Shown: one piece after another, positions 9,359 to 60,071 of the stretch
How positions within the stretch are numbered: position 1 is the stretch's first letter
How the letters are laid out: each line of letters opens with the position of its first letter
Sequence record: PV805632.1
Strand: one strand, 5' to 3'
Source of the DNA: a phage
DNA: 64,000 bases
Position numbers and translations under genes: made by a program
Notes under the pieces: generated by a model
The model's database searches: none
What the model was told of the DNA's origin: nothing
Seen by the model: the letters and a program-made list of their open reading frames with translations, nothing else

Positions 9359-10462
9359 ATGAAAATCGAACTGATTTCTATCATCGCACTGGCAGTTGAC
9401 AGTCGAAACCTCACACTGTGGAAGCCTGATGGCTCCACGGTTGTATACCCTCAGAGCGACCCACGGGTTGCTCGTATTGTATCTGAAGCACAGACTAAAG
9501 GTCTGGGCACTACCCAGGATCAAATAGAAGTAAACATTGCACCAGAAGTAGAACTTCGTACTGAATACCTGGAAGCAGAGAAGAACACCAACGGATTCGT
9601 TCGTTTCTTTAAGGTAGCTAAAGCTAAACTCAAAGAGTTCTTCGAAGATGGTACAGGTGTTTCACCAGCCCGTACCGTTTCAGATATTAAGCTGGGTAAT
9701 CCTACTAAGACACTAGTGTCTAAAGCTATGGATACTTTTCTGGCTGTCCAGGCTAATGAACCAGAAGTAACGGTAGCAGATGGTTACTACGACAAACGTG
9801 ACAATCTGATGTGGGTTACCGGTTGGGATAAAGACCATAACCATCTTGCACTGGTTCGTTTTATTGACTACGTACTTTGTTGGAGTCATAAGCATACTGA
9901 TCATATTCTTGCACAGGAGTGGCCTATTGCAATTCGTGCAGTATCTGATGATGAAATGGGTGAGTTTGCTAAACAAGCCCAATACATCAAAGGTGTACAC
10001 ATTGTATTTACCAACCGTGGAGAAACACCACTGCCTTACGTGGAAGTAGCTAAAACCTCGAACCAGGATAAGCTGGCTGCTGCTTCAGAGAAACTGGCTG
10101 CATTAGGTGCTATCAGTACTGATGACACTAACTTCCATACTGATGTGAAGGAAGATGAAGTGGTTGTTGCTGTTACCAACAATGGGGTTATCCCTGGGGT
10201 TGAGAACCTGCAACGCCACCTGCGTCAGTCTGCCAAGCTGAAAGACTATAAGGGCTTTACTAAGTTCCTTGAGCGTCTGGCTCCGGTTATTAAAGACCGT
10301 CTGCACTCAGTGGAAGACCTGATGAAGTTCATGGAAACTGCTGAACTGCCTATCGCTGATGATGGCTCTATCCTGTTCCTGAAACGACTTAAGTTCAGAG
10401 GTGAAGAAATGGTAAGCGTGTATTCGTTGACTGTCACTCAGGCAACATTCGTCAGTGGGTAG
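9359..10462 (+). CDS. rIIB: rIIB-like protein, N-terminal segment (possibly a frameshifted single gene with 10543..11403)
   Basis: 367-aa ORF immediately after rIIA; the next frame is open from 10405 and the two ORFs together give about 680 aa; assignment by position and size only. Confidence 0.45.
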   Translation: MKIELISIIALAVDSRNLTLWKPDGSTVVYPQSDPRVARIVSEAQTKGLGTTQDQIEVNIAPEVELRTEYLEAEKNTNGFVRFFKVAKAKLKEFFEDGTGVSPARTVSDIKLGNPTKTLVSKAMDTFLAVQANEPEVTVADGYYDKRDNLMWVTGWDKDHNHLALVRFIDYVLCWSHKHTDHILAQEWPIAIRAVSDDEMGEFAKQAQYIKGVHIVFTNRGETPLPYVEVAKTSNQDKLAAASEKLAALGAISTDDTNFHTDVKEDEVVVAVTNNGVIPGVENLQRHLRQSAKLKDYKGFTKFLERLAPVIKDRLHSVEDLMKFMETAELPIADDGSILFLKRLKFRGEEMVSVYSLTVTQATFVSG

Positions 10463-24870: not shown

Positions 24871-24947
24871 CAAACAAGTGTAAGGTAGTTTTTACCGAAA
24901 GGTACTGAACTACTTACGTAGTGAGGCTGTAATAGCCAAAACAAAGA

Positions 24948-24969
24948 AAGCCCCTCATTTGAGGGGCTT
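24948..24969. terminator. bidirectional hairpin terminator between plus- and minus-strand blocks
   Basis: AAGCCCCTCA-TT-TGAGGGGCTT with T-rich flanks on both strands. Confidence 0.6.
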
Positions 24970-24975
24970 TCTTAT

Positions 24976-25605: not shown

Positions 25606-25630
25606 AAAGCCCACACTACTGGTGGGCTTT
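25606..25630 (-). terminator. rho-independent terminator downstream of the giant ORF
   Basis: AAAGCCCAC-7 nt loop-GTGGGCTTT; on the minus strand followed by a T-rich tract. Confidence 0.55.
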
Positions 25631-44928: not shown

Positions 44929-46161
44929 TTAAAGACTACCCGGTACTGGGAGTTTAGCGAAATCTTCATCACTCATGGCGAGTGGGTTTACAATAGGTGT
45001 TGCTTTACGTGTAGCAGCCCGATTAAGGGAAGCTGCTTTAGCTTGCTCACTGTTAGCCAGAGTCTGCTTAGGTTGTGCTACTCGCACTACCGGCTGAACC
45101 ACTGGTTTAACTGCTTGTACCGGTTCTGGCTTAGCTACTCGGTTAAATGCCCCCTGCTGTGCAAGGAGGTTACCGACGTGGTTATAAGCCTGAATGAACG
45201 GAGTACCTACCGGAATCTGGCCTAACATCTGAAGACGGTTCACTTCGTTTGCAATGGTGTCATAAATACCATTCTCACGTTGTTCGTGAATAGTCTGGAG
45301 TAGGCCACGATTCTGGTAAAGAGCTTCTTTACTGGCAGCATCCCATGTCGAGCCGATAACACCTAATGTAGCTTGTCCTTCTTGAGTAGACTTTAAGTCG
45401 TCAATTTCGGTTGCAAAATCTGCTTCGGTGTCGGTAACACGGTGATTGCCACCCTGGTAGTTAATTTCCTCATCTGGGTTAAAGTCCAGAGGATCTGTAC
45501 CAGAGTCTTTGAGCAACTTCTTAATGGCTTCTGGATTCTTTTTATCCAGGTCAATCAGGAAGGAAAGTTTATCCTCATCCATTAAACCGTTGTTCTGTAA
45601 CATCAGCATTACCTTACGGTAAGGCTTCAGTTCTTGCATCTTACGAGTATAGTTAGCACCCATCTGCATCAGGCTAATGGCCTCCTCCGGTGAACGGGGA
45701 GTAATCACTTTGCCGTTAGCTTTAAAAGGAGCCATCAACTTCTCGTAACCTTCCTTATAGTTGAAGTCAGCAGGCAGACCTTCAGACTGTTTGCCTTCTT
45801 CTTTCTGTTCCTGGCCTAGTTCAGTAGTAGAAGGTTCAGCTTTAGTAATCGGCTCACCGTTACTATCAACTTCTGTGTCAACAACTTTATCAACAACTTT
45901 ATCATCAACTTTATCAGAAGTTAAAGAATTTGCTGAATCTTCTTCATCAGGTTCGGCTTCAGGGGGGGTTTCTTCGGTTGGTAGGTCTTCAACAGCAGGA
46001 GTGTCAACTTCTTCTTCAGGAGTCTGTACGCCGTTGGTTTCTGGGTTGTTCTGAGTGGAAGTATCTTCCTCAGCAATAATTGCTGGGGCTTCCATATTCA
46101 GAATCTCATCATCCGACATTGCGAGAATGTCGGAAGCTGTGGTTGCAGCTTCCGTAGTCAT
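44929..46161 (-). CDS. putative scaffolding protein (acidic, low-complexity N-terminus)
   Basis: 410-aa ORF directly upstream of the capsid gene; E/D/T-rich. Confidence 0.4.
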   Translation of the reverse strand: MTTEAATTASDILAMSDDEILNMEAPAIIAEEDTSTQNNPETNGVQTPEEEVDTPAVEDLPTEETPPEAEPDEEDSANSLTSDKVDDKVVDKVVDTEVDSNGEPITKAEPSTTELGQEQKEEGKQSEGLPADFNYKEGYEKLMAPFKANGKVITPRSPEEAISLMQMGANYTRKMQELKPYRKVMLMLQNNGLMDEDKLSFLIDLDKKNPEAIKKLLKDSGTDPLDFNPDEEINYQGGNHRVTDTEADFATEIDDLKSTQEGQATLGVIGSTWDAASKEALYQNRGLLQTIHEQRENGIYDTIANEVNRLQMLGQIPVGTPFIQAYNHVGNLLAQQGAFNRVAKPEPVQAVKPVVQPVVRVAQPKQTLANSEQAKAASLNRAATRKATPIVNPLAMSDEDFAKLPVPGSL

Positions 46162-46180
46162 AGGAAATATCTCCGGTTAA

Positions 46181-46525
46181 TTATTCGTCTTCAGGTTCAG
46201 CACGAACTGCGTCGAGTTCTTCTTCTACCTGTAGAATAACGTCAGCTTCGTTTTCGCCCATACGAATGGCAAGATCAAGCCAACGACGTAAGTGACCAGC
46301 AGCTTGAGCCATGTTCAATGCATCTGCACGGTTATTAGGTTCAAGCAGTGGGTCACCAGACTCTTGCACGTAACGTGCACAATCTTCCGTACAGAACTGG
46401 CGAAGAATTACTTTACGGAACAGTGGATTCTCCAGAAGTTTACGTACATCTTCTGCATGTGCAACTGCACCTTTAGCAGCTTCCAGTCGATGTTCCAGTC
46501 CAGCGATTGTTGATTCTTTACTCAT
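46181..46525 (-). CDS. hypothetical protein
   Basis: 114-aa ORF between portal and scaffold-like genes. Confidence 0.45.
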   Translation of the reverse strand: MSKESTIAGLEHRLEAAKGAVAHAEDVRKLLENPLFRKVILRQFCTEDCARYVQESGDPLLEPNNRADALNMAQAAGHLRRWLDLAIRMGENEADVILQVEEELDAVRAEPEDE

Positions 46526-46538
46526 GTGAAGGTCTGCC

Positions 46539-48809
46539 TTACAGGTTCATGCCAAGAGCCGATGCTGGGTCTTGGCTAGGGTCATAGTATTGGGAACTAA
46601 GTGAATAAGCTGGGTCTTGCTGAGCAGCTAAATCCCGTTCTGGTATAGAGTTCACGTTAGTCAAAGTATTATATCCAACAGCTGCAGATATGTTGGGGGT
46701 AGTTTCCCCTTCTTTAATAGGTGTTGTCAATGCCTTAGTTATCTGAAGGTTCTGGTTTCCTTGGGATTGTGCTTTTTGTTTTTCCATATCACGAGCATGT
46801 TTAGTACCAGATTCCTGTTCCAGATAATCCAGGTCTTTAAGGTCACCACTGGAAGCAGCCTCTTTAGCCTTAGCCATATTGAGTGCAATCTTACTTTGTA
46901 ACTCTTCATTCTCAAGCTGTGCTTTCTGAATTGCCAATTGCTTAAGCTGTTCTTCCATAGGGTCTGGCTGTGGTTGCCAGGTACGTAACTCATGAGCCAG
47001 GTCGGGCATACGTTTAAGTTCTGCAATCTTAGCTACGAGAGATAACGTAATAGTTTGGTCAACCGTATTACCCAATGTTTGAACCATGAAGCTCAAGTCC
47101 TGGGATTTCTGGTTATCAATTTCAGCAGTGTTGATATCAACCTCAATATCGAAGTTACCTTTAAGGTCTTCACGGTTAATCTCTACATACTGCTCGTTAG
47201 TAATACGTACTACTTCTTTCTCAGATAAGAACACAGCATTCATTGCACAAATCTTAGTACCAATGTCTGCCATGCCCTTAGCTAATCGGCGAAGGATTGC
47301 CATCTCACGTTTGGATGCTGCATCAAGTGCACCACGAATACCGGCAGCCACTTCCCCGTATGCTGAACCAGTTACACCACCAGAGAATGCTTTAACACCA
47401 GTTAATGATTCAGCTTCCTGGTTTTGCATCTGGGTCATTATTATTGCCGACTGAGGTAACTCAGGGAACTTATGTTCCATAATGGCCTGACTAGGATTAC
47501 CCTGCATTGGGTTGTATTCGTAGTCTTGCCCATCGTCATATCGACGACGGTTTAGTGTATCCAACATCCCTTTAGGATAACCACGTTGACCGTTTGCACT
47601 TCGACCTAACAGGTCAATCATCCCACGCATAGTTGCACCAAGAATTGCTTGGTTATCCCCTAACAGTTCAGCATCAGCTTCACCGAAGAGTTCGCGTTTA
47701 CGGGGCATGTAAGGAACAACTACTAAAGGTAATTTACCGTCAGGGAATGGGTTCCTCTCCATACGAATAAGAGTAGAACCAATCCAGGTAGCAACAATAG
47801 GTTCCAGAGAACCATCATCATTGATGTCGTAAAATCCCCAGTATTCGTAGGCAACAACTTTCTTACGAAGTGCATCCTTAAACTGAAAGTCACTTGGAGT
47901 CTTACTTTCATGGTCTGGGTCGGTCATAGGGCTAGAACTTTCCCAGTCAATCTTATCTAAATTGTGATAACGATCTTTGTTCTTCATGAGGTCTGCTTTG
48001 CATGTCTCAAAGGAGATAACTGCATACAGAGCCTTATCCAAATCACCGTTACAGCTTGGGTCAATAACTACGTTATTAGGGTTAAGCATTTCAACGGTAG
48101 GTCTGTTAACTAGTGCCTTCTCTACTTCTACTTCAGTAACTCCAGTCTGGATTGCATAGGTAGCTTCCCCAGTTTCATTAAAGTAGTTAACAGCTTCCTT
48201 AATATCTTCCGGCATTGTCTCATCGTACTCACGAGGATTCTCTGCCTGAAGCTGTAAAGCCTGTTGAAGAACATCTGCTTGTTCCTGGTTCTCGATTGGA
48301 TATAACTGGAAGACTGGTGTTTCTGTTTTAATCTTAACAGTCTTACGTTCCCAACCAATACGAGCAATACCAGTACCGTCATCTACAACACTGTGTACGT
48401 AATCATCCACCAGTTTTACTTTATTAAGCTGGGTACGAAATTGGTAGTTAAGAACTAATTCATTCTGTCGTGCAGCTAACTCATCCTCAAAAGTAACCGG
48501 AGTTACTTTAAAGAGCTTATTAGATGAGAGGAATGGCTCAGACAATGGAGCATATCGCCACTCTGCCTGACGGCGAACCAGTCTGGGTTGGACTTGTGAG
48601 CGTCCCTTAACCTTTGGGGGTTTAGCCTTACCTTTAACTTCCATCAGGTCATTCCACTCACGAATCTGAGCCATAATTGCATCGTGAGCAGGTTTAGCCG
48701 ATTCCAAATCACCCTTCAGTAATTGGATACTTGGTTCCTTCTTCCAGTCCGTTAGCTTCTCTGATTGAGCTGGGTCTGGTAAAGGCTTAAAAGTGTCTTG
48801 GTGTTCCAT
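46539..48809 (-). CDS. putative portal protein
   Basis: 756 aa; size and position (upstream of scaffold/capsid) match the N4-type portal; not motif-verified. Confidence 0.6.
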
Positions 48810-48817
48810 AGTTAATC

Positions 48818-49345
48818 CTATTCAAAAAGTTTACGGTCAGCCTGAATTTGTTTACCCAACTCAATTAGTTGGTTGTCACGGAGTCTAACAGTTGCCCGGA
48901 GTTCTTCAACCAAACGTCTGCCTTCTTCAAGACTGTTGTCGAGTCTGGCTGCATGGCTTGCAAGACTTCTGCACTCAAGGGTTCCGGCTTCGGCTTGACG
49001 TTTATATACCGATGCTCGTCTTTCAGACTGTTGCATCCGGCTGTCGTAATCACTGCTAACGCGAGCAAGCTCGCTTGCGTAATTACTCTCAGCCGTCTGC
49101 AACCTAGAGGTGAGTATCCCGACTTCATAACTATGGTTTCTTTGGAGAGCATTGTATTTGTCCTGTATTTTTTGTGTTGCCTTCAGGTCTTCGGCTTTTT
49201 GGGCATCCCACTTCTTTTGAACAGTAGACTGTCCATTGGAATTGCCCCAAAAGTAAATGGTGGCCCCGAGGACCACCACCAGAAGATAAGGCCAACCTTT
49301 AGAGATTAGCATCTTCATTACATGCCTCCAGTGGTACATTACCAA
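48818..49345 (-). CDS. i-spanin (Rz-like): N-terminal TM helix plus periplasmic coiled coil
   Basis: TM segment [16 protein letters not shown], charged helical remainder; a later Met (49318 or 49312) may be the true start. Confidence 0.55.
48865..49128 (-). CDS. o-spanin (Rz1-like lipoprotein) embedded in another frame of the i-spanin gene
   Basis: signal peptide plus lipobox LAVITTAGC, Pro-rich mature part; fully embedded in 48818..49345. Confidence 0.5.
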   Translation of the reverse strand: MKSGYSPLGCRRLRVITQASLLALAVITTAGCNSLKDEHRYINVKPKPEPLSAEVLQAMQPDSTTVLKKADVWLKNSGQLLDSVTTN

Positions 49346-49934
49346 TTCGGTTAGCTACCCAACCATACGTAAAGTCTGGCATGTTCAATGAGGTGTAGTG
49401 GTTCAGTTGTTTAGCATCGAGTAACTTAATCATTACCTTACATGCTGCAACTTTGCCTCGTTTTTTCTGTAATGCTTTATATGCATTAACAGTACCTGCA
49501 CCGACTTTACCATCAACTTGTATTTTAGGGTAGTCTTTGCCATCACGGGACATTTCATTAAGAGATTGCTGCAACCACTTGGCTGGTCTGGTTACACCAG
49601 TGTTAACACCAGCATCAACCAGTTTGTGTGTTACAGCAGGAGATATATCAGCGAAGGCTACGAAGTTAGGCTTAATAACGTAGTCATCAATGTATATCTC
49701 AGCAGCCATCTCTTTAGATAAACCCTTCATGGAACCATCCCAACCATACTCAGTAGCCAGAACTTCTTTATGAGACTTAGCTACTGATTGGGTAATACCA
49801 TGATTAGTTTCCCCACCCGGGTCACGAGGATTGTTTACGTACCCTCCTTCCATATAGAACACTGCCCCCAGAATAGCAGCGATAACTCCTCCCACTGCAC
49901 CCCCTTTTGCAGCAAGTTTCTGTTTAGCTTTCAT
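49299..49934 (-). CDS. endolysin: GH108 N-acetylmuramidase with C-terminal peptidoglycan-binding domain, possible SAR N-terminus
   Basis: YMEGGYVNNPRDPGGETNHGIT matches the GH108 catalytic motif; Gly/Ala-rich hydrophobic N-terminus GGAVGGVIAAILGAVF. Confidence 0.8.
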   Translation of the reverse strand: MKAKQKLAAKGGAVGGVIAAILGAVFYMEGGYVNNPRDPGGETNHGITQSVAKSHKEVLATEYGWDGSMKGLSKEMAAEIYIDDYVIKPNFVAFADISPAVTHKLVDAGVNTGVTRPAKWLQQSLNEMSRDGKDYPKIQVDGKVGAGTVNAYKALQKKRGKVAACKVMIKLLDAKQLNHYTSLNMPDFTYGWVANRIGNVPLEACNEDANL

Positions 49935-50184
49935 GAGAATCTTCCTTTGGATGGAATCGTATTAGTCTGCCTACAATATTTAAGGCAAACAGTGCGATTG
50001 TAATACTGGAACCATGGGGAATATATTCAAGGATGTGACGTGGTAGTCCCGTCAACATTGGTTGGATAATATCTACTGTAGAAAACAGAATTAATCCAAA
50101 TGCACTAATCTGAACAGATGCCCACTTCCAGGACTTCTTCCAGTTAGGAACTAGCCCTATTTTTCTTTTTAGCTTGTGAACCAT
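49924..50184 (-). CDS. putative holin (two TM helices; possibly a pinholin if the endolysin is SAR-type)
   Basis: start taken at internal Met MVHKLKRK; two hydrophobic segments; directly upstream of endolysin. Confidence 0.45.
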   Translation of the reverse strand: MVHKLKRKIGLVPNWKKSWKWASVQISAFGLILFSTVDIIQPMLTGLPRHILEYIPHGSSITIALFALNIVGRLIRFHPKEDSHES

Positions 50185-50501
50185 GCGAATATCTCCCGTC
50201 TTGCAGCAGCCAATACACCAATAATTGCACCTGCACCAGCCCACACCCACTTACCAAAAATTCCAGCACCTGCAACCTTATGTTTAATGGTGATGAACTC
50301 TTCGATGGTAGGTTCAGACTTAGTGATGCTCTCCTCTACCCGTCTAAGTCGGGTACTAAGATCACCCATAGACTCGCTTAGCTTTTTAATAGACTCATCC
50401 ATTTTCTCCCTTTCCCTCGATTCACGAGTTTGGTTTTCGAAAATGTTTCTCAGTCTCTCTTCGAGTCGGGCTAGAGTTACGTTATCTGGTTCATTTCCCA
50501 T
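50169..50501 (-). CDS. membrane-anchored coiled-coil protein (lysis-associated?)
   Basis: 110 aa, charged helical N-terminus and C-terminal TM AGAGIFGKWVWAGAGAIIGVLAA. Confidence 0.4.
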   Translation of the reverse strand: MGNEPDNVTLARLEERLRNIFENQTRESREREKMDESIKKLSESMGDLSTRLRRVEESITKSEPTIEEFITIKHKVAGAGIFGKWVWAGAGAIIGVLAAARREIFAWFTS

Positions 50502-50577
50502 AGGGATTTTCTCAGGTTAGTTAAGTCGTAATTGACTGAAACAGTCTACATAAAGGTTTGATTGGGGTACAACAAAA

Positions 50578-50598
50578 AAGCCCCTCCCTCATGGGCTT
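50578..50598 (-). terminator. rho-independent terminator (second of a tandem pair)
   Basis: minus strand AAGCCC-9 nt loop-GGGCTT followed by TTTTTTGTT. Confidence 0.55.
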
Positions 50599-50631
50599 CG
50601 AAGATTAAATACTTTTTCTGATGATAAAAAT

Positions 50632-50649
50632 AACCCCGCCGAAGCGGGG
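50632..50649 (-). terminator. hairpin terminator CCCCGC-TTCG-GCGGGG (18-nt element also present at 53258-53275)
   Basis: minus strand hairpin followed by TTATTTTTAT; exact 18-nt repeat of the element upstream of the gene. Confidence 0.55.
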
Positions 50650-50677
50650 CATAATTTTAGTTAACTGCTATGCCAGA

Positions 50678-53233
50678 TTAGCCCACATTACCAATAGTCA
50701 TGCTGTACTCAAGAGTAAATAACTGACTAGAAGCAGACGTGTTATATAATCCTACATAACCAGATGTAGCTACAGTAGTAGAGAATGCAGACGTAGTTGC
50801 CGTGCCATCATCTGACTCTACGGTAAAGGTATGAGCACCAGTAGAGGCGGAAGTATATTCCCATACTTTAAAGCCTTTATCTTCACGAGTAGTATCACCA
50901 AATACTACCCAGTCAGTTGGGTTAGTATTGTTGAACGTACCGATGCACATATTACCTGCAGCATTCACACCGACTAACACACCAACATTAGTAAGTGGGT
51001 TATAGTTAAGTGCAATATAGGTGTTTTTCTTAAGACCTTTCGGTACAGCCAGATAACCTACAGATGCAGCATTATAAAGGTGAGAGTCTGCGGTTTTACT
51101 GAACTGAGTACCAGACAAAACTTCACCAAATACACCATAGTCATTGGCGTTAGACTGCTTCATTACTGGAGCAGGGCGGGTCATGTTAGGTTCTTTGCTA
51201 AGACGAACCATCGGCAGCTTAACCCCATCCGTTTTGTAAGAACCAAACTTCAGCATAGGGAAGTAAGCATCAGTAGGACTACCATCAATGATATAACGGA
51301 TAAAGTTCAAACCTTTACGTAATCGCCCCATATAGGTAGTAAGGGTTTTGCCACCCCCAAAGTAACTCATGGCAGTCTTGCCATTAAGCACGGTACGGTA
51401 GGCATTAATTTGAGTATTACGCTCTTGGTATTCACCGGACTCAATCAATGCTTTGCCCGCAGGAGACTCAACACGGATGTTGTGCTGTTGCCCAACAACG
51501 GCAGCATTAGTCCATGGTTCTAGAAGGGATACAGTCATACCTTCTTCTTCACACCATACCATTGTGGTCATGGTTACATTTTCATTAGTTACACACTTAG
51601 ACAGAAAACGGAATACGTTCAGAGCAGGAGCACCAGATACAGGTACATACTGTGGTGCATAGTGAGTACCGGAAGGATACCCTACACAATCCCAATAGTT
51701 TTCTACAGCAGCCTGAGTGATCATATCCCCCGGTCTAACACGACGACAGTACTTATTACCAAGGGTCTGCATATACATCGCATTACCCATAGCCATTTGT
51801 CCAAGTTCTTGTGGGTGAGTAGTATCCCAGGTTCCATCCTTCTTAACATAGTAGTAGTACCCAGTTTGCTCATTGCGGCTACTTGCACTAGTCAGATTTG
51901 GTCCCAAGTTAAAATACTCAACACCTAGTTTATCTGCCATGTACTTCTTAGTACTAAGCTCAAATGCCATACGTACTGAGTCATTATCGTTGACTGTTAC
52001 AATACCAACAGCACAACCGTAGCCCCATGCTTTACGAACAAACTTGTCAATCTGGTCACGGTAGGTAGCGATACTAGCACTACTGTCATTCCAACCCATT
52101 GCAAGGATACATACACGAGGAGCTTCTGCACCATAGCGTGTGTTACCGAAGAACCCACGGTCGAAGTTACGATAGCCCCAACCGTCGGATAACTTCTTAC
52201 CAGATACGGAACAGTTAGCTGATTGGTAAATAGTTTCACCACTACGACGAGACTGTGTGAGCAACAAGCCATTCATCCAGTGTTCAGTCCATGAGTGGGA
52301 ACCTCCAGATAAAGAATGATTGTATGTACTTGGGGCATCTAAGTCACCATCTGAGTTAGTTGGCGGAGAACTCCAGTCCTGTTTACCCCATGCACCATCA
52401 GTAATGGAATCGCCAATGATACCGATACGACAAAATGTCTGGTCACGGAATGCACAGTATATTTCGTCATTAACGGTTTTATTGTTACCATTCATTGAAG
52501 CAGCAATGTCAAACGTATGGTCCTTTGCATACCACTGGTTTTTAACAATAAGTTTGCCTTCCCCAACAAACTTACGGACATCATCATCGGGGAGTAAGTT
52601 ACAACGAATGGTAACACCCTTAGGGATAAAGATTTTACCGGGGAAAGCATAAGCAGCTGCACGGTTATCCGTAGTAGTATTAACAACAATACCAGGAACA
52701 TCATATACGGAAGTAGAACCAACAGGAGGAATTAGACCACTGTTTAATTCTTGTCGTATTAATTCATCATTAGCAATAACCCATGCAGTGGGAGAAATAC
52801 CACCTGCACTAAACGGAGTAGAGTTAAGTGGTACGCTCTTGGGTAACCCACCAGCCCAGCGATACTGCGTGCCATTATGAGTAAGCAACTCATTCTTGGT
52901 CTGTATAACTGAGCCAGAAGTAAACGTATCCGGTAAAGTTACATATTCTTTGCGAGTAACAGCTAATGCACCTAAGTCCACGCTACCAGCAGAGTGAACT
53001 AATACACCAGCAGGGCTAAGGCTTATAGCAGTAACACCTGAACCAATGTTAGCAGGTAAGGAATAAGCACGTTGTGTAGCTTTGTCATAGATGACTTTGT
53101 AACCAGTAAGCAGAGCACCCACTGAGAAGTAAACAACCTCAGATTGTTTAACCCCAAAGTGACGTGCTATTGCTTGTTTATTGGTTAGGATTCCTGTTGA
53201 ACCCTTACCGCCTTGTGAGAACATTTCGTTCAT
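50678..53233 (-). CDS. tailspike protein with SGNH/GDSL esterase domain (probable O-antigen/capsule deacetylase)
   Basis: all four SGNH blocks in order: GDSIT, SLSGGSHSW, AMGWNDS, TWDTTHP; 851 aa; in G7C-like N4 phages an SGNH tailspike deacetylates O-antigen (from memory). Confidence 0.75.
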   Translation of the reverse strand: MNEMFSQGGKGSTGILTNKQAIARHFGVKQSEVVYFSVGALLTGYKVIYDKATQRAYSLPANIGSGVTAISLSPAGVLVHSAGSVDLGALAVTRKEYVTLPDTFTSGSVIQTKNELLTHNGTQYRWAGGLPKSVPLNSTPFSAGGISPTAWVIANDELIRQELNSGLIPPVGSTSVYDVPGIVVNTTTDNRAAAYAFPGKIFIPKGVTIRCNLLPDDDVRKFVGEGKLIVKNQWYAKDHTFDIAASMNGNNKTVNDEIYCAFRDQTFCRIGIIGDSITDGAWGKQDWSSPPTNSDGDLDAPSTYNHSLSGGSHSWTEHWMNGLLLTQSRRSGETIYQSANCSVSGKKLSDGWGYRNFDRGFFGNTRYGAEAPRVCILAMGWNDSSASIATYRDQIDKFVRKAWGYGCAVGIVTVNDNDSVRMAFELSTKKYMADKLGVEYFNLGPNLTSASSRNEQTGYYYYVKKDGTWDTTHPQELGQMAMGNAMYMQTLGNKYCRRVRPGDMITQAAVENYWDCVGYPSGTHYAPQYVPVSGAPALNVFRFLSKCVTNENVTMTTMVWCEEEGMTVSLLEPWTNAAVVGQQHNIRVESPAGKALIESGEYQERNTQINAYRTVLNGKTAMSYFGGGKTLTTYMGRLRKGLNFIRYIIDGSPTDAYFPMLKFGSYKTDGVKLPMVRLSKEPNMTRPAPVMKQSNANDYGVFGEVLSGTQFSKTADSHLYNAASVGYLAVPKGLKKNTYIALNYNPLTNVGVLVGVNAAGNMCIGTFNNTNPTDWVVFGDTTREDKGFKVWEYTSASTGAHTFTVESDDGTATTSAFSTTVATSGYVGLYNTSASSQLFTLEYSMTIGNVG

Positions 53234-53257
53234 ATAAACCTCTTTGTTTTTCTAAGA

Positions 53258-53275
53258 AACCCCGCCGAAGCGGGG
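53258..53275 (-). terminator. hairpin CCCCGC-TTCG-GCGGGG between the two tail fibre/spike genes
   Basis: identical to the 18-nt element at 50632-50649; followed on the minus strand by TTTCTT and an AAAGAGG RBS. Confidence 0.5.
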
Positions 53276-53280
53276 GTATT

Positions 53281-56200
53281 CTACCTGATAATGAACTTAC
53301 CGAGGCTAATATCATTTATCAAAGTTGCTACTATGTTTGCCAGTTGGGTGGTTGTTAACGTGTTCACATCACCACCACGCAACTGTCCGGCGTTGGTGAA
53401 CGGGAACTGCTGAGGCTGAGCGCTATTGTAGAACTGGTTACCCTCTTCATACCGAGAAGACGGCGTAGAAGTGTAAAGGATTCCTTTAGTAGTCGCAGGA
53501 ACAGAACAATTCACGATGTTTACATGACCAGCGATGCCAACGCACTCGATAGGGCGATCAACAGTACCAAACGGTTGAACACCAACCAGGCGATGCACGT
53601 TCAAGCTCTGAGCTGCCTGCGCGTACAGATAAGAACTAGGCTGCCCGTTAACACCTCTGATGTTCCAGTTATCCACTTCAATATGACGGGCATTATGAAT
53701 CTGACAGATTGCTTGACCGTCTGCATCAGGAAATGCGCCAACAATACGCACGTTCTTCATAGTGATGTCGGAAGTAGCTGTTGCGTTCAACCCGCAGTTA
53801 ATCATAACAGCTTTAGACCCAGATTGTGTGCAGTGGATTGTTAACCCATCGAATTCAATATCACCTAGATTTACCGTGTGAGAGGATCCATCCTTACGCA
53901 AAAAGAATACAGCCCAATCTGTGTGACCTGTTATTAAGATATTACTAAATCGCAGGCGTGTGCAGACTACCGGATAATATCGACAGAGGATTGGCTGTGA
54001 ACAATTCTTGATTGTGATGTTGTCATACGTGACATCACTGGAACCCTCAATCGCAATACCCGCATTACATGCTTCAATGTAAGCACCGGTCACACTTCCG
54101 TTGGTGAAGTTTGCGCGGATGCCATGCGATTCACAGTTCTTAATTGTTACGTTGCTAATGTTGACGCGAGTAATTGCAGTACCATTACCGCCGCCAACAC
54201 CAGTAACCAAATCGTCAGACTGAAGACGCAAACCGTTACCGCCGGATCCATTAATACTAATATCATGAATCATCACATTAAGCGTGCGACCGGGACGTGT
54301 TGAAGTCATAAACACAGAAGATGCCCATGTGTCTCTAGTACGGATATGATGTATATGTGCTTCTGTTGCGTTCCCAACAATAATCGCCATACCCTGACGG
54401 TTGCTGCCGTCCGGCTGTTGGATTTGTCCACGCCCACAATCGTGAGAATACAGGTTGTTTGCAAGCGTCCATCTACCATAATCCATTGTTACGTTGCTAT
54501 TCCATGCCCCCTGCAATTCACACCCTGAAAGCTCAAGCGTACCAGCAGATTGCATAGCCAACCCAACGCCAGGGTCAAATGACGCATCCTGTCGGTAGAA
54601 ATCAAAAAGGAAGTTACCGACAATGCGGATGTCATAAGGGGTATAGTCATATTCATTGTTTGTATCATTCCATGTTCTCGGTGAACGCAGCCAGAACTGA
54701 CGCGAATCTACCGTCACTTTCGGTAATAGCGGTTTGAGGTGAATATCCCCCTGGATGGTGAATATACCCTCAACTGTAACCGGTGAATAGCCAATGTAAA
54801 TATTACCTGCCTTTGGTAGTAGGCGCGAAAGCTGCGCATCGTTCTGCGCAATCTTCCAGCCAGTGATCACTTCGTTGAAGAACGAAGCCGGATATAGCTC
54901 GTGAGCGCCGTTAATGACGGTCTGGTCGAAACTGGTGACTGTCACAGATGACGTAAGCGCGGAACCCAACATCATCAGATTGCCACTCACCCTGACAAAC
55001 AGTACTCCTGACGGAATAACATCACCGACAGACAACGAACGGTTATTTTCTGTTGGGAAGCACGAACCACCGTAAAAACCTGATGGTATGTTGGTGGTAA
55101 AACTATTGTATTCTACCCAGGCGTTTGCCGATACTCCGCCAGTATTTATCGGCGTAGAGTTAGCCCCCACTGTTTTTGGTAAGGTTCCACCCCAGGCGTA
55201 GCACTGACCAGCAGCAACATGCCATACGACATCTAATTTGCTAGTAACTGTTGCACCCTCCTCAAAACTACCATCAACAAGCGTTAAGCCAGCCTCTGCA
55301 AGACTACGACGCCATAGTTCTCTGGTATTTCGCTGTTGGTAGGAATCCAGCAGAGTAACAGTAATATTTCCGGGGGAATAAGTTAACTGCCCATTGGAGA
55401 CAGCGTTGATGTAAACATTAGTAGGTAGAGTGGGTAACCCATAAATGTGTTGTGTAACTACATCATAAATTACCTTCTTACCATTAAGTACCTGAGTAGT
55501 ATCCGTACTAAGGATTACTTCAGAATCTTTTACGTTAGCTGCACGAGCCACTTCCTGAATAGTGTGGTCTGTTATTTCAAGTACCTTAGCTTCACCGCCC
55601 AACTGAACAATAAGACGGTCATTGGTTGCCAATGGTTCAGTAAGAAGGATTCGGTTATTGTCTGAGTCAATCGTATAGGAGTTATTAGTTAACCCTTTAT
55701 GGAAACGTAAACCATTCTTGTATACAGCAGGTACAGACTGGAAAGTGAAAGGAATATCAATTACCTGCTCCCCACCAACAGCAGCACCATGATTGTACAA
55801 CCAGTTAATAGTTACCCAGTCGGATACGTTAGGGTTATCCGGTGTAGCAGGAACACCTGTACGCATAACAACAACAAAGTCACCCTGCTCCAGTGGAGTA
55901 GTAAACTTAATCTCAAAAGCTACTGGGTCATACTCAAAATCGTAACCCTCAGTCTGCCAATCACCATTAACAATCATAAATGGTGCACCAGCCGTCTCAT
56001 CTGGGATACGAATGGTAGTCTCACCACCATTAGCTGAACCAGAGTTATAAACCCAAGGGATATACCCACCACCATTGGTGGACTCACCACCACTTCCACC
56101 AGTACCGGAAGTAGCTACCTTAACCCATGAACCAGTTGCAGTAGTATCATCTGGTAGGATACCGGTACGATCACCATCTACGTACAAATAGTCAGTAACC

Positions 56201-56481
56201 TGACGGTCACCTGCACGGGAGAATCCGTAGATACGGGCATACTTAGCATCAGCAGTAAGAGCCTTAAGTTCAGCCTCAGATTGTACGCCAATAACCATTC
56301 CATATTGATTCAGAAAATCATACAGGAGTTTCAGGTTACCCAAATTACAATACACAGTTCGGACTACGTGGTAAGCATTACCAAGTAGTGCGTCTACCAT
56401 TGGGTCGTTGGATTTATTCTGGCAGTAAGGATTGGACCAATCCTGATTTGCATCGAAGGGGGTATGTGCGTTCATCGCCAT
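53281..56481 (-). CDS. tail fibre/spike protein with right-handed beta-helix (pectin-lyase-like) repeats
   Basis: 1066 aa; G/N/T/S-rich repeats (NISNVTIKNCESHGIRANFTNGS, DNITIKNCSQPI); upstream of the SGNH spike. Confidence 0.65.
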   Translation of the reverse strand: MAMNAHTPFDANQDWSNPYCQNKSNDPMVDALLGNAYHVVRTVYCNLGNLKLLYDFLNQYGMVIGVQSEAELKALTADAKYARIYGFSRAGDRQVTDYLYVDGDRTGILPDDTTATGSWVKVATSGTGGSGGESTNGGGYIPWVYNSGSANGGETTIRIPDETAGAPFMIVNGDWQTEGYDFEYDPVAFEIKFTTPLEQGDFVVVMRTGVPATPDNPNVSDWVTINWLYNHGAAVGGEQVIDIPFTFQSVPAVYKNGLRFHKGLTNNSYTIDSDNNRILLTEPLATNDRLIVQLGGEAKVLEITDHTIQEVARAANVKDSEVILSTDTTQVLNGKKVIYDVVTQHIYGLPTLPTNVYINAVSNGQLTYSPGNITVTLLDSYQQRNTRELWRRSLAEAGLTLVDGSFEEGATVTSKLDVVWHVAAGQCYAWGGTLPKTVGANSTPINTGGVSANAWVEYNSFTTNIPSGFYGGSCFPTENNRSLSVGDVIPSGVLFVRVSGNLMMLGSALTSSVTVTSFDQTVINGAHELYPASFFNEVITGWKIAQNDAQLSRLLPKAGNIYIGYSPVTVEGIFTIQGDIHLKPLLPKVTVDSRQFWLRSPRTWNDTNNEYDYTPYDIRIVGNFLFDFYRQDASFDPGVGLAMQSAGTLELSGCELQGAWNSNVTMDYGRWTLANNLYSHDCGRGQIQQPDGSNRQGMAIIVGNATEAHIHHIRTRDTWASSVFMTSTRPGRTLNVMIHDISINGSGGNGLRLQSDDLVTGVGGGNGTAITRVNISNVTIKNCESHGIRANFTNGSVTGAYIEACNAGIAIEGSSDVTYDNITIKNCSQPILCRYYPVVCTRLRFSNILITGHTDWAVFFLRKDGSSHTVNLGDIEFDGLTIHCTQSGSKAVMINCGLNATATSDITMKNVRIVGAFPDADGQAICQIHNARHIEVDNWNIRGVNGQPSSYLYAQAAQSLNVHRLVGVQPFGTVDRPIECVGIAGHVNIVNCSVPATTKGILYTSTPSSRYEEGNQFYNSAQPQQFPFTNAGQLRGGDVNTLTTTQLANIVATLINDISLGKFIIR

Positions 56482-57182
56482 CCTCGTTGTTCAAATTTAG
56501 TTTCGGTAATTGAAATACTTCCATTAGCCAGGTCGTAATCAACAACCTCACCACAGATGCTTTCATACGTTTGCAGATACTCTGCTGCTTTAGCGTTAGC
56601 TTCAGGAGTATTCAAACCAGTGTGGTAACGATAACCCACCCAGTTATGAAGTGCCGTCATTAGCGTATCAGTTAAATCAACTTCCTGTTCTTCATCACCC
56701 GTAAGAACTGGGTGCTTAGCTTGATACGTTACGTTAAGTGCCTCGAAGTGTCGAGGTCGCATACACTGAATAGTATCAGGCCGTGGGGTGAAAATAGCAT
56801 GAGGGTCTGAATCGTCGTTCAGTCTACGTCGATTCCCCGAGTTATCAAACACATTTAAGATTTTAATAACATCATCCTGGAAAGGTTTCATGAACCCATC
56901 CATGATGTACGGATATTGAACCTCAAGAGTAGGCTTAGTAAATTTGGAGTAAGCATATTTGGATTGAAGAGGGTAATCAGTACGCCCTTCCTTCATCTCC
57001 ACAATGCAGCTATTTGTCTTAAGAGGGAAACGACTATGCAGTCGTACCAGTCCTTCATTAATAGCAGCCAGTATCTCCGGCTTACTATCTGGTTCAATAT
57101 CTAGTCTGTCATCCGTGACTGCACCAGTACCTTTTAAGGTACTTAGTGCTAAGCCTCGGTATACTTCCGATAATTTCTGCAT
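56472..57182 (-). CDS. hypothetical virion/tail protein
   Basis: 236-aa ORF between terminase and tail fibre gene. Confidence 0.45.
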   Translation of the reverse strand: MQKLSEVYRGLALSTLKGTGAVTDDRLDIEPDSKPEILAAINEGLVRLHSRFPLKTNSCIVEMKEGRTDYPLQSKYAYSKFTKPTLEVQYPYIMDGFMKPFQDDVIKILNVFDNSGNRRRLNDDSDPHAIFTPRPDTIQCMRPRHFEALNVTYQAKHPVLTGDEEQEVDLTDTLMTALHNWVGYRYHTGLNTPEANAKAAEYLQTYESICGEVVDYDLANGSISITETKFEQRGWR

Positions 57183-57188
57183 GGTTCC

Positions 57189-58799
57189 TCACACAATGTA
57201 TGAACGTAGTGGGTTAACACTATCTTCTTCTTCCTCATCCCACATTGGGTCACCCTTGTTATCCACCAAAGTCATACCTGCTTGTGGTTTCCAAGGATTG
57301 AGATAACCCAGCATGGAGATAGTATCAATACAGTCATCCTTACCTTTAATTCCATTAATGGTAGCTAGTTTAATCTGGCCCATGAACAGACCCATAATAG
57401 TTGTATCTCTCAACTCTTCCGGGAAGTACATCTTACCAGCTTTGAACCATGGAACTACCAGGTTGAAACGTGACAGTTTAGAGGTTACAGGACGGATGCC
57501 TGGCTTACCACCCTCAGAGGATGCAAAGTTAAAGAAGACATTACGGTTAATCATTTCTTTCTGAAGGAGTGAAATGAATCCACCCTGCTGTCCTGTAATT
57601 TCAACACCAACGTTTTGTGGTTGGTATTCCTGAACCAGACGGAACAAGTCGTCGAAGTTCTTATCCATAAGCTGACGATTAGCCACACCATCAACCCAGA
57701 ACCAATCTCCATTAGAACTGTAAGCCCAAACTGATATGACACTATAGTCACTAGTCTGTTTCTCCGAAGTAGCAAAGTCAGTTGTAATGTAATAGTTATA
57801 GCAAGACTTCATCCTTAACAATTGCTGCCTGCTATACCATTTAATCTCACTATCCTGAACAAGACGTTCATCTTCAGAACTAATACGAAGCATAAGTTCC
57901 TGGTAGAAGCCAGCCAACTTACCAGTCTTAACTGCCATGTCGTATTGGGCTTTAATGTAGTCATACGAGAAACGGTCATCCCATGCACCTTGAAACTCTT
58001 CTCTACTACAAGGGAACTTCTCACACACAGGCCATACGTTGACATCCCATGCACCGGACTCTACTGCTTCAATGATAATGTCTTCCTTATTAAAGGGAGT
58101 ACCATTGAAAATTACTTTACGACGTGTTGGGTCAAGAGCATGGTTCACACCTTTATAGACAGTATCCTTAATAGCTTCCATGCTTGTCTTAGAGTTAGCA
58201 TCACCATCACTAATCAAGTCATCCAGTACACATAGTGTCGGACGTTTACCGTATATCTTCGTACCACGAAGACCAGTCTTGGCACCAAACAGTTTAACCC
58301 CTAGGCGATGACCTTCTGCATTACGAAACTCTAACAGGTTATCTGTAAAAATAGCTTCGGGTATCCACTGCTGAAGGAACTCACTATTCTTGTATCGGAA
58401 CTCAATGTTCTTACGTGCAGACTTAGCACCGTTATCCATTGAGTCAGATACGTAAATCATTCCTTCTACTTTACCAAGACTTGGTAAATGCCCAAACACT
58501 GCCAAGAACAAAGTAAAGTATTCCATGAACACAGCAGTCTTACCTGCACCACGGAAACACAGGTTAACTACATACTGATTCGGGGTAATCATCTTATCCA
58601 ACATCTTCAGGTGAACTGGGGGTGTTTTGTTGGATTCACCCTCTTTACCATTAACCAACTTAATAAAGTTGGCAAAGGTAAGAGCAAACTGACTAGGAAC
58701 ATAGTTAGATGAATTAAGGTGGGAGTAATCCACCTGGTCTAGCCATTCATCTAGTTCCTGTTTAATTAACTCAGACATCTGTAATGTCCTCATCTGCAC
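57189..58799 (-). CDS. terL: terminase large subunit
   Basis: Walker A GAGKTAVFM, Walker B-like LCVLDDLISD, C-terminal nuclease-like region; 536 aa. Confidence 0.85.
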   Translation of the reverse strand: MQMRTLQMSELIKQELDEWLDQVDYSHLNSSNYVPSQFALTFANFIKLVNGKEGESNKTPPVHLKMLDKMITPNQYVVNLCFRGAGKTAVFMEYFTLFLAVFGHLPSLGKVEGMIYVSDSMDNGAKSARKNIEFRYKNSEFLQQWIPEAIFTDNLLEFRNAEGHRLGVKLFGAKTGLRGTKIYGKRPTLCVLDDLISDGDANSKTSMEAIKDTVYKGVNHALDPTRRKVIFNGTPFNKEDIIIEAVESGAWDVNVWPVCEKFPCSREEFQGAWDDRFSYDYIKAQYDMAVKTGKLAGFYQELMLRISSEDERLVQDSEIKWYSRQQLLRMKSCYNYYITTDFATSEKQTSDYSVISVWAYSSNGDWFWVDGVANRQLMDKNFDDLFRLVQEYQPQNVGVEITGQQGGFISLLQKEMINRNVFFNFASSEGGKPGIRPVTSKLSRFNLVVPWFKAGKMYFPEELRDTTIMGLFMGQIKLATINGIKGKDDCIDTISMLGYLNPWKPQAGMTLVDNKGDPMWDEEEEDSVNPLRSYIV

Positions 58800-59460
58800 G
58801 TACTAGTTTAGAACCAGCAATCTCTTTAGTAGGTACACCACTATTGATTGCATTAATTTGCTGTTCAGCCAATGCAGCAAGCGTTGCCTTGAGGTCAGTC
58901 AACCCAGAGTTTTCTCTTAAGTCCAGATTGATATTCGTTACCTGATCTTTCGGTTTAGCTAAGTGGGTAAGGATAGAGTTAGCTGCATCACATCTTACCT
59001 TCTCACTTACCGCTGTAGTCATCAGTTCAACCTGAACATTGATTGCCTTCTGATAGTTGTCTTGGTTCACAATCCACACCGGAACCAAACTTTGTTCCAT
59101 GATGAGGTTAACTAACTTACCTCTGTGATAAGCAGATACGTAAGCACTAATATCTTTCTCACTGGTTCCTCGAGCTACAAGTTCTGCTTGTCGGTTAGGG
59201 AATGTTTTGAAGTAGGCTTCCTTATTTGAATAGCCCATGTGTTTGTAAGTCACATACTGAACTGCATTCATGTAGTCCTGTGTCTTAAACTTACCCTCCT
59301 TCATAACACCAGAGTAAGAGATGAAGTTTTCACGGAATGCTTCAGCAACCAGTTGGTCTTGGGTTATGTTGTTAATCGTGTCTACCAACTCCTGGCTTAC
59401 ACTGTTCTTGAAGTTAGCAGGTAAGGCATTAATGATCTGCTGCTTAGTTAGCTCTCTCAT
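58771..59460 (-). CDS. hypothetical protein upstream of terL (possible small terminase subunit)
   Basis: 229-aa ORF overlapping the terL start; positional guess only. Confidence 0.35.
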   Translation of the reverse strand: MRELTKQQIINALPANFKNSVSQELVDTINNITQDQLVAEAFRENFISYSGVMKEGKFKTQDYMNAVQYVTYKHMGYSNKEAYFKTFPNRQAELVARGTSEKDISAYVSAYHRGKLVNLIMEQSLVPVWIVNQDNYQKAINVQVELMTTAVSEKVRCDAANSILTHLAKPKDQVTNINLDLRENSGLTDLKATLAALAEQQINAINSGVPTKEIAGSKLVRADEDITDV

Positions 59461-59631
59461 ACTTATCTCTCTACAAAGTTATGTCTATTATCGAAGATTC
59501 TTTTCTTGGGGTGGGATACCCCTTGAAGAAACTCTAACACACAGTTACACTTTAGTCATGATATAGAAAAAGTTCATGATACTAAATAGTATGTAATGTT
59601 CCGATGACCCTATCCCCAAAAGGAGTAACCT

Positions 59632-59922
59632 TTGAGAATCTATATGAGAGTCATCGACTCTAAAGACGAATACTCAGAGATAGACCATACCAAAGCTGGC
59701 TTTATGGCTGGTGACATAATCCTTACCCATGACGAAGATACATTCCATGAGTTATCTGGAATGATGCTATTAGAGAACCGTCCTGGTATTACCATCTTAG
59801 AACCGCAAGAAACTTACTCTTTAGAAAAGTCTATTCCATCTCTTGTGTTCTTCACAAAATTACCTCATAGTGTCCCCATCAAACGAAGCAAAGATAGCGT
59901 TCGGATGACGGTGATGATGTGA
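59632..59922 (+). CDS. small early protein, member 1 of a tandem paralog family
   Basis: TTG start with AAGGAG 7 nt upstream; shares the motif DEDTFHELSGMMLLEN...ILEP with the next three ORFs. Confidence 0.4.
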   Translation: MRIYMRVIDSKDEYSEIDHTKAGFMAGDIILTHDEDTFHELSGMMLLENRPGITILEPQETYSLEKSIPSLVFFTKLPHSVPIKRSKDSVRMTVMM

Positions 59923-60071
59923 TTAGTCATACCGCCTAGTAGACAGTGGCGGTACTCGTAAAGAGTTAATAACTTCTACAGTCAGGGTTCCCCGGCTCCT
60001 TTCCTACTCCGTAGGTCTAACGGTACATAAGTACCTAGGGGGGTGAACTGACCCGTGATTGAAAACGGTAA

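Follow-up and report, generated by a model that had tools for sequence, protein, structure and literature searches.

A G7C-type host-recognition module with terminator-type stem-loops at the ends of its two tailspike genes

We analysed a stretch of phage DNA of 64,000 nucleotides (nt) (sequence record PV805632.1; hereafter, the window), in which the region 50572-56481 carries two tailspike genes, gp66 and gp63.1, each followed by a copy of the same 18-nt hairpin. The phage is a close variant of coliphage G7C, and the region is its host-recognition module. As a whole, it very probably represents the G7C module together with ordinary terminator-type stem-loops at the ends of the spike genes. The compensatory variation of the stems, the generic nature of the 18-mer, the distinct provenance of its leader and trailer copies, and the fossil of a single-stranded DNA-binding protein (SSB) gene beside the trailer copy are new here, and argue against a sequence-specific mechanism for spike exchange.

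Results

Over its full length, window 50400-56700 showed 97.5% nucleotide identity to Escherichia phage vB_EcoP_G7C (Gamaleyavirus, Schitoviridae; HQ259105), and the remaining parts of the window were also G7C-like. The two-spike module is already well known from G7C, and its re-finding in so similar a variant adds nothing new. According to the list of open reading frames (ORFs) and the G7C annotation, the gene order gp67-gp66-gp63.1-gp63 is that of G7C, with the same genes, strand and intergenic sequences; both hairpins and the 176-nt spacer between gp63.1 and gp63 are identical in the two phages, and the G7C record has two 16-nt repeat_region features exactly at the hairpins. The two ORFs on which the initial annotation was built were present on the minus strand, and its reference to G7C-like N4 phages was apt, the window being itself a G7C variant. 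Protein identities, folds, motifs, hairpin distribution and homology breakpoints were computed here, enzymology and spike architecture were taken from the literature, and termination, read-through and the origin of the hairpin identity are what we infer.

The product of gp63.1 (50678..53233, minus strand; 851 amino acids (aa)) is a predicted SGNH esterase tailspike (O-antigen deacetylase) docking on gp66, as indicated by PDB 4QNL, Pfam and identity to G7C. It shares 98.2% aa identity with G7C gp63.1, with 15 substitutions, none of them in the SGNH motifs, and it matched the crystal structure of that protein (4QNL) with 1944 bits over residues 1-851, a full-length match through which the SGNH alpha/beta/alpha fold is predicted. 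The motifs that had been read from the translation were confirmed, with GDSIT at aa 274-278 providing the nucleophilic serine (block I), GWND at aa 380 the oxyanion asparagine (block III), and DTTH at aa 470 the aspartate and histidine of the triad (block V). For block II, a candidate glycine lies in SVSGKK (aa 342-347). Furthermore, the Pfam family Lipase_GDSL (PF00657) was detected at aa 270-485 (window ~51779-52426) with 26.6 bits, above the cutoff of 23.6, together with the families G7C_C, G7C_GBD, Gp63_3rd_G7C and Tail_spike_N, some of which were built on the G7C protein itself. The conserved docking N-terminus comprises the first 100-120 aa (window ~52872-53233), and residues 1-166 matched CBA120 TSP1 and B2 Gp48.

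In the passages of PMC6872550 and PMC10743462 that cite Prokhorov 2017, G7C gp63.1 is described as deacetylating the E. coli 4s O-antigen while leaving the backbone uncut, this deacetylation as essential for infection, and the protein as binding gp66 residues 138-294 and not the virion directly; the dual-spike architecture and the deacetylase activity are also covered in PMC11654681. Given its near identity to this structurally solved protein, the window gp63.1 can be regarded as a probable O-antigen deacetylase of the same kind, in agreement with the esterase tailspike initially proposed. It would dock via its N-terminus on gp66, and its Ser-Asp-His esterase domain would deacetylate the host O-antigen, a step needed for infection. 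Counterparts of the esterase part (aa 160-851) were found at 53-55% identity in the 152-kb phage SKA64 and the 39-kb podophages Penshu1 and Pisces, and at 35-37% in the 44-kb phages Snoke, Schulenburg, Shashou and Sciku and in an Aeromonas phage. The SGNH spike module itself thus appears to be distributed over phage types.

The gp66 protein (53281..56481, minus strand; 1066 aa), a virion-anchored tailspike, is 97.2% identical in aa to G7C gp66, whose annotated start is 2 codons shorter and which differs by one 1-aa indel. Throughout the genus, the N-terminal part that serves as anchor and as docking region for gp63.1 is conserved, up to about aa 375-400; residues 1-475 matched PDB 9d80_D and residues 17-378 matched Gp49 of 9d83, which are solved Schitoviridae spike anchors, and Pfam placed Tail_spike_N at aa 403-457. 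PMC6872550 reports that gp66 anchors to the virion by its own N-terminus and that a gp63.1-gp66 complex is present on the virion. In the window, gp66 has the layout of a G7C-type long spike (N-terminal anchor, T4 gp10-like docking region, then receptor-binding domain), and gp63.1 that of the short spike, with a conserved docking N-terminus and a gene immediately downstream of gp66. Within the otherwise conserved anchor, substitutions relative to G7C were concentrated at aa 77-89 and 125-137 (with a 1-aa indel; window ~56070-56250), which suggests a small mosaic patch.

For the C-terminal 596 aa of gp66, the PDB gave no sequence match at E up to 10, and Pfam nothing above threshold, with pectate-lyase-like hints below it. 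Homologues were mainly E. coli prophage tailspikes with a P22-type head-binding domain (~69% identical), some of them annotated as right-handed parallel beta-helix proteins. An AlphaFold2 model from a 23-sequence alignment (mean pLDDT 87.4) consisted nearly entirely of beta-strand rungs, and its best PDB matches in Foldseek were the HK620 and CBA120 tailspikes, polygalacturonases and phi29 gp12. The beta-helix-type repeats seen earlier in this ORF are borne out by the model, according to which the C-terminal ~600 aa form an exchangeable right-handed beta-helix receptor-binding domain. In nucleotide terms, the exchangeable cassette was delimited by local blastn at 53277..55278 (minus strand), with 80-82% nt identity to tailspike genes of MK-13 and fGh-Ecl02. 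In phi G17, gp66 is reduced to a 378-aa anchor (locus 1149-2285) with the receptor-binding domain missing, and a hairpin, the leader and a gp63.1-type gene follow directly after this short gp66, an arrangement resembling gp49/gp48 of Shigella phage B2.

The 18-mer AACCCCGCCGAAGCGGGG occurred exactly twice in the window, at 50632-50649 and 53258-53275, that is, downstream and upstream of the esterase gene, as the initial annotation had stated. Allowing up to 3 mismatches added no further copies in the window, and two matches appeared in 0 of 100 dinucleotide shuffles. On the gene strand it reads CCCCGC-TTCG-GCGGGG plus TT, a stem of six G-C pairs capped by a C(UUCG)G tetraloop. Copy 1 (53258..53275, minus strand) lies 5 nt past the gp66 stop and 24 nt ahead of the gp63.1 ATG, forms the 5' edge of the gp63.1 leader and continues into UUUCUUAG; copy 2 (50632..50649, minus strand) lies 28 nt past the gp63.1 stop, continues into UUAUUUUUAU and has a fold z of -3.8. 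With flanks included, fold energies were about -14 to -16 kcal/mol. A T-rich run follows 3' of each stem on the gene strand only, with 7 of 8 T in copy 2 and an interrupted run of 5 of 8 in copy 1. Stable, oriented with the genes and followed by these T-runs, the hairpins are as terminator-like as first described; on the late transcript each would form a 6-bp stem and then a U-rich run. The window contains ~11 perfect GC-rich hairpins, and only these two share their stem sequence. The 100-nt flanks of the two copies were not more alike than shuffled sequence (p about 0.9), and a larger duplicated unit was rejected, similarity being absent beyond the 18 nt.

A second terminator-like site after gp63.1 (50578..50598, minus strand; GAAGCCC...GGGCUUU and a U-run; 7-bp stem, 9-nt loop, T6) had been read as a further terminator. 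The site exists and its T-run is kept across the genus, but as a fold it is weak (z = 0.13). Its 3' arm and T-run (GGGGCTTTTTTGTTGTA) form the genus-conserved edge of the variable region, with homology to PhAPEC7, ST4 and E20 resuming at 50578-50584. Copy 2 and this site would close the spike operon ahead of the lysis genes.

Both 18-mers are ordinary stem-loops of the intrinsic-terminator type, generic and convergently favoured, at which transcription would be expected to terminate. Because no promoter lies between copy 1 and the ribosome-binding site (RBS) of gp63.1, copy 1 would have to be read through, and it is probably a leaky terminator, an attenuator or a 3'-end stabiliser after gp66. 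An Rfam scan of 50000-57000 gave no match at E up to 1.

The exact 18-mer was present in at least 120 IMG/VR viral contigs, one copy each, and except for a 77-nt stretch in one of them none was homologous to the window. Read in terminator orientation, nearly every one of these copies had a T-run after it; its occurrence with a T-run in so many unrelated contigs marks the 18-mer as a generic terminator hairpin. The initial annotation had opposed a cassette role to that of a generic terminator recurring at unrelated sites of the genome, and each side of this was partly right: within this genome the 18-mer is confined to the spike module, yet it is widespread in unrelated viruses.

Twenty phages from five taxa (Gamaleyavirus, Kuttervirus, Aglimvirinae, Phapecoctavirus and Ithacavirus) were compared at the junction equivalent to gp66|gp63.1, and 19 of them had a stem-loop of -11 to -18 kcal/mol situated 5-9 nt before the leader. 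The stems at this position were of at least 8 kinds, the commonest being CCCCTC-TTCG-GAGGGG and not that of G7C. Since the hairpins fell out of register relative to the leader in a MAFFT alignment of 17 regions, per-sequence folds were used instead. For the 6/4/6 hairpin class, a registered 16-nt alignment of a subset picked by geometry, and hence with weak statistics, showed the fifth pair as G-C, U-A or A-U, always compensated, with variable loops. Pairing rather than sequence appears to be under selection at the leader hairpin; pairing that is kept while the stem sequence changes fits an RNA terminator and speaks against a site at which a nuclease or recombinase would recognise a specific sequence. 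Among about 12 lineages, the hairpins at the two positions matched exactly in G7C and the window alone; Bas96, PhAPEC7, AV101, EC1-UPM and UE-S5a carry unlike hairpins at the two positions. The exact identity of the G7C copies may be a lineage-specific coincidence, or a conversion, within a very small pool of favoured stems, and it is not required for a cassette mechanism.

The two copies also appear to differ in origin. Copy 1 can be placed as the first element of a leader block (hairpin, RBS and N-terminal ~100 aa) common to five phage groups. The leader and ribosome-binding region upstream of the gp63.1 ATG (TTTCTTAGAAAAACAAAGAGGTTTAT; 53234..53257, minus strand) is conserved in the five taxa named above, and its core AGAAAAACAA[A/T]GAGG is nearly invariant in them. 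In the Phapecoctaviruses tuntematon (locus 270-578) and ZCKP1 (264-572), a 102-aa truncated 'tailspike' corresponds to the gp63.1-type N-terminus alone, with the same hairpin and leader ahead of it. In addition, ~100 nt of spacer upstream of the hairpin are common to ZCKP1 and the Gamaleyavirus U1G (locus 5180-5428).

Copy 2 and ~40 nt of its flank (50591-50649, to 50667 in some matches) matched more than 100 siphophages at 78-90% nt identity. These have genomes of ~45 kb, and Skate, DS8, Sa179lw and Jersey-like phages are among them; in them, the terminator lies between convergent tailspike and SSB genes; in Skate, the homologous site is annotated as a terminator. Read on the other strand, the siphophage flank encodes the C-terminus of SSB (...MDFDDSIPF*), at the 3' end of its gene. 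The trailer flank in the window (50591..50631, plus strand) is a decayed SSB 3' end on the strand opposite to the spikes, ATGGGCTTCGAAGATTAA... against ...MDFDDSIPF* in Skate, with the remnant ATGGGCTTCGAAGATTAA at 50591-50608. PhAPEC7 (locus 3184-3318) and ST4 (locus 3224-3301) retain longer stretches of the SSB C-terminus, pseudogenised and broken by in-frame stops (tblastn E = 3e-6 and 1e-3, respectively). The remnant downstream of gp63.1-type genes thus comes from the 3' end of a bacterial-type SSB gene (...GGNEPTMDFDDSIPF*) on the opposite strand.

Moreover, the siphophage tailspikes at that terminator share the Tail_spike_N domain with gp63.1. The comparison points to a siphophage donor for the ancestral spike cassette. 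In the simplest reading, the 3' half of a gp63.1-type gene would once have been acquired from one of these siphophages, with one joint in the shared N-terminal domain and the other within the SSB gene, past the terminator. The transition to the resident genome would lie in the second terminator, GGGGCTTTTTTGTTGTA being the first genus-conserved sequence. A search for phages combining the gp66 3' end with the CCCCGC trailer hairpin gave only Ackermannviridae, which have their own spacer.

To locate the spike boundaries, spike loci from 12 further Gamaleyaviruses, together with those of 3 Ackermannviridae, were aligned to window 46000-60000. The conserved left arm ended at 50339, 50578-50584 or 50649, depending on the phage, and the conserved right arm started at 55349-55499, corresponding to gp66 up to about aa 375. 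Between the arms, the gp63.1 and gp66 C-termini were variable, separated by a conserved island from 52872-52932 to 53253-53275 that holds the first 100-120 gp63.1 codons, the RBS and the hairpin. A database-wide search with this island returned 272 phage records. Among 59 non-G7C matches taken as a spread sample, 38 reached the gp66|gp63.1 intergenic region; all of these ended at 53253-53280 (27 of them at 53275-53280), and none ran on into gp66. High-scoring segment pairs ended exactly at 53275 in PhAPEC7, ST4, St11Ph5, EC1-UPM, PGN829.1 and AV101, and at 50649 in Bas96 and AV101. The homology of MK-13 and fGh-Ecl02 to the gp66 cassette starts just past the hairpin, at the stop codon. Extra DNA after gp66 (180-440 nt; St11Ph5, EC1-UPM, PGN829.1 and U1G) was always on the gp66 side of the hairpin and never in the hairpin-RBS interval.

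The inner joints of the exchangeable segments lay in coding linkers, at gp66 ~aa 375-400 and gp63.1 ~aa 100-120, where there is no hairpin, and downstream transfers passed copy 2, the SSB fossil reaching to ~50591 and a gp63 fragment in AV101 to 50391. The comparison of relatives proposed at the outset thus did place breakpoints at the upstream 18-nt element. As for the hairpin marking cassette boundaries, homology blocks do stop at the upstream hairpin or the stop codon, but the stem is not conserved (at least 8 variants at one position), the two ends of the mobile unit do not both lie at the element, and its copies have different affiliations.

In AV101 (Agtrevirus-like, Ackermannviridae), two tailspike genes are each followed by a separate remnant of Gamaleyavirus DNA that comprises the 5' region of gp63 and the spacer upstream of it (locus 4992-5250 and 9916-10101). 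One is G7C-type (93.5% to window 50391-50649) and one EC1-UPM/UE-S5a-type (85%), which suggests two podophage-to-myophage transfers running past the terminator into gp63. The AV101 paper does not mention these remnants.

Around the module, gp67 (56472..57182, minus strand), a 30-kDa virion (adaptor) protein, lies directly upstream and overlaps the gp66 start, and gp63 (50169..50501, minus strand), an N4 gp63 homologue, is the first conserved gene downstream of the spikes, both assigned from the ORF list and the G7C annotation. Holin, endolysin and spanin genes follow gp63. No recombinase or nuclease was found among these neighbours (gp67, gp63, holin, endolysin and spanin) by annotation, with no profile search made of them. 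Elsewhere in the window, perfect GC-rich hairpins with T-runs on both strands at 24947-24970 and 25606-25630 resemble bidirectional terminators, presumably at strand-switch points. Window 260-23898 aligned to G7C 9308-34701 as four pieces, this stretch being ~1.75 kb shorter than in G7C; G7C thus carries insertions in the replication-gene region that are missing from the window variant. When the collinear alignment was extrapolated, the window would extend beyond the point where the linear G7C record stops, and a permuted or circular assembly is therefore its likely source.

Discussion

The block ends at the hairpins are real, but a cassette mechanism is not established by them. Each hairpin would mark where a gene ends that undergoes diversifying exchange of its 3' half; since it lies a few bases from the stop codon of such a gene, selection alone would put joints there. 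Several points weigh against regarding the hairpins as ordinary terminators and no more. The only two identical hairpins among the ~11 in the window are those of the spike module, and shuffled sequences give no such repeat; since the identity does not look like chance, a non-random origin by conversion or recombination within the hairpin is plausible. The stem variants CCCCGC and CCCCTC each occur at both positions in different phages, hinting at exchange between positions. Furthermore, the block ends of dozens of phages at 53275-53280 would also be expected from a recombination hotspot, and for the terminators themselves, efficiency and read-through are deduced from sequence.

An exchange point at the hairpin is already a published hypothesis. 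In section 9 of Babenko 2019 (10.1101/542787), g66 exchanges are described as bounded on the left by a terminator-like stem-loop between genes 63.1 and 66, identified earlier by Kulikov 2012; a meganuclease site and a barrier to the migration of Holliday junctions are suggested there as its possible roles. Section 20 of Pas 2023 (PMC10408124) describes a ~20-nt non-coding motif downstream of receptor-binding protein genes of Gamaleya-, Kutter- and Justusliebigviruses, predicted as a terminator and proposed as a recombination hotspot, the presence of which was uncorrelated with the number of recombination events. These portions of the two texts contain no report of compensatory stem variation, of a generic occurrence of the 18-mer or of the SSB-gene fossil.

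In this context, hairpins that are both terminators and recombination hotspots, with microhomology or stalled branch migration or replication putting one cassette joint at the hairpin, seem possible but rather unlikely. Near-identical stretches of 16-18 nt at tailspike-gene ends in many phage families could supply the microhomology, and the same stem variants recur at leader, trailer and siphophage trailer positions. The clustering of match ends in the intergenic region, the exact ends at 53275 in six phages and at 50649 in two, and the restriction of extra DNA to the gp66 side of the hairpin agree with a hotspot, as do the proposals in the sections cited. However, selection alone predicts the same pattern, the hairpin lying 4-10 nt from the stop of a gene with a variable 3' half. 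The opposite joints fall at domain linkers without a hairpin, DNA downstream passes it (the SSB fossil, gp63 in AV101 and the genus boundaries at 50578-50584 or 50339), and 16-18 nt is short for homologous recombination.

A contributory role of the hairpin, as microhomology or as a structure-dependent crossover point, is doubtful to much the same degree or slightly more, and in a sequence comparison it cannot be separated from selection. Somewhat less likely than the hotspot is the broader proposal that the tailspike-terminator stem-loops form a small convergent family, CCCC[G/T/A]C-loop-G[C/A/T]GGGG, serving as portable crossover points for receptor-binding cassettes among podo-, myo- and siphophage families; one such event would have turned the leader hairpin of the G7C lineage into the trailer type of siphophages, to which the two copies would owe their identity.

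It is very improbable that the 18-mers are direct-repeat footprints (a target-site duplication or attachment-site halves) of the insertion of gene 63.1 into an N4-like backbone. Exact direct repeats do surround a gene absent from N4, their annotation by the depositors is repeat_region, and AV101 has a gp63.1-type gene with both hairpins. Nevertheless, the flanks show no further similarity, all other Gamaleyaviruses have unlike hairpins at the two positions, and copy 1 belongs to a leader block also found in Ackermannviridae, Phapecoctavirus and Ithacavirus, with copy 2 in a siphophage-derived trailer; in addition, no integrase or transposase is annotated nearby, and the repeat is a palindromic terminator that also occurs in unrelated phages.

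Even less credible is a site for a sequence-specific homing endonuclease or site-specific recombinase mobilising spike cassettes, one of the suggestions in Babenko 2019. The boundary coincidence at the hairpin and homing-type insertions elsewhere in Gamaleyaviruses (e.g., an annotated HNH endonuclease in PGN829.1) speak for it, but the many stem variants at one position with pairing kept by compensatory changes, the common use of the 18-mer as a plain terminator in unrelated phages, and the lack of an annotated nuclease gene adjacent to the module speak against it.

A role as N4-type promoters, single-stranded DNA hairpins used by the virion RNA polymerase, can practically be dismissed. The phage is indeed N4-like, and N4 does use DNA hairpins as early promoters, but their loop has 3 nt and their place is the early left end, whereas the elements seen here are in the late structural region, at gene 3' ends and with T-runs downstream on the gene strand, and the same hairpin is found in phages without that polymerase. 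The promoter, target-site duplication and homing-site readings were therefore rejected, given the late 3'-end position, the unlike flanks and the non-conserved stem, respectively.

Ordinary terminator-type stem-loops remain the preferred reading. The module itself is a textbook case of a podophage passing the O-antigen barrier with a spike that deacetylates instead of depolymerising, within a branched receptor-binding complex. Whether terminator hairpins promote swaps of receptor-binding domains across phage families, or sit where selection puts the joints, is a question already raised in print, with a bearing on host-range evolution and on the engineering of phage specificity. A causal role of the hairpins in recombination is unproven, and comparison of sequences alone cannot settle it.

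Known systems close to the module include the branched spikes of Ackermannviridae (CBA120 TSP1-4; Kuttervirus, Agtrevirus). TSP1, TSP3 and TSP4 (4OJ5, 5W6F and 5W6H) matched the gp63.1 N-terminus; SFP10, SS9, A221 and AV101 have a hairpin-RBS-N-terminus leader with ~77-80% DNA identity to that of the window, and MK-13 and fGh-Ecl02 share the gp66 C-terminal cassette. These phages differ in having a myovirus baseplate with four spikes, and most of their inter-spike spacers hold a different repeated hairpin element, ACTAAATACCCCATATTGGCAAATCCTCTATGGGGTAT. This imperfect hairpin stands upstream of several Ackermannviridae tailspike genes (fGh-Ecl02 4918-4996, 7100-7177 and 10175-10220; MK-13 4927-5003; AV101 ~9799-9840) and is comparable in this to the leader hairpin of Gamaleyaviruses.

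Skate-, DS8-, Buchanan- and Jersey-like siphophages carry the same hairpin or a one-base variant, with the ~40 nt flank, directly after the tailspike stop. In those phages the SSB gene is intact and has its functional 3' end in the flank, whereas in the window the flank is a non-coding remnant, and their receptor-binding domains are unrelated to the gp63.1 esterase. In the Shigella phages Moo19 and B2 (PDB 9d80-9d84), N-terminal regions matched gp66 (9d80_D and 9d83 Gp49) and gp63.1 (9d84 Gp48), and esterase activity and a G7C-like topology have been reported for their spikes; they belong to other genera, B2 gp49 is a 410-aa anchor only, and the C-terminal domains are unlike those of the window. 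Finally, 'Motif three' of Pas 2023, as described in the section cited, appears to be equivalent to the window hairpin, judging from its position and description.

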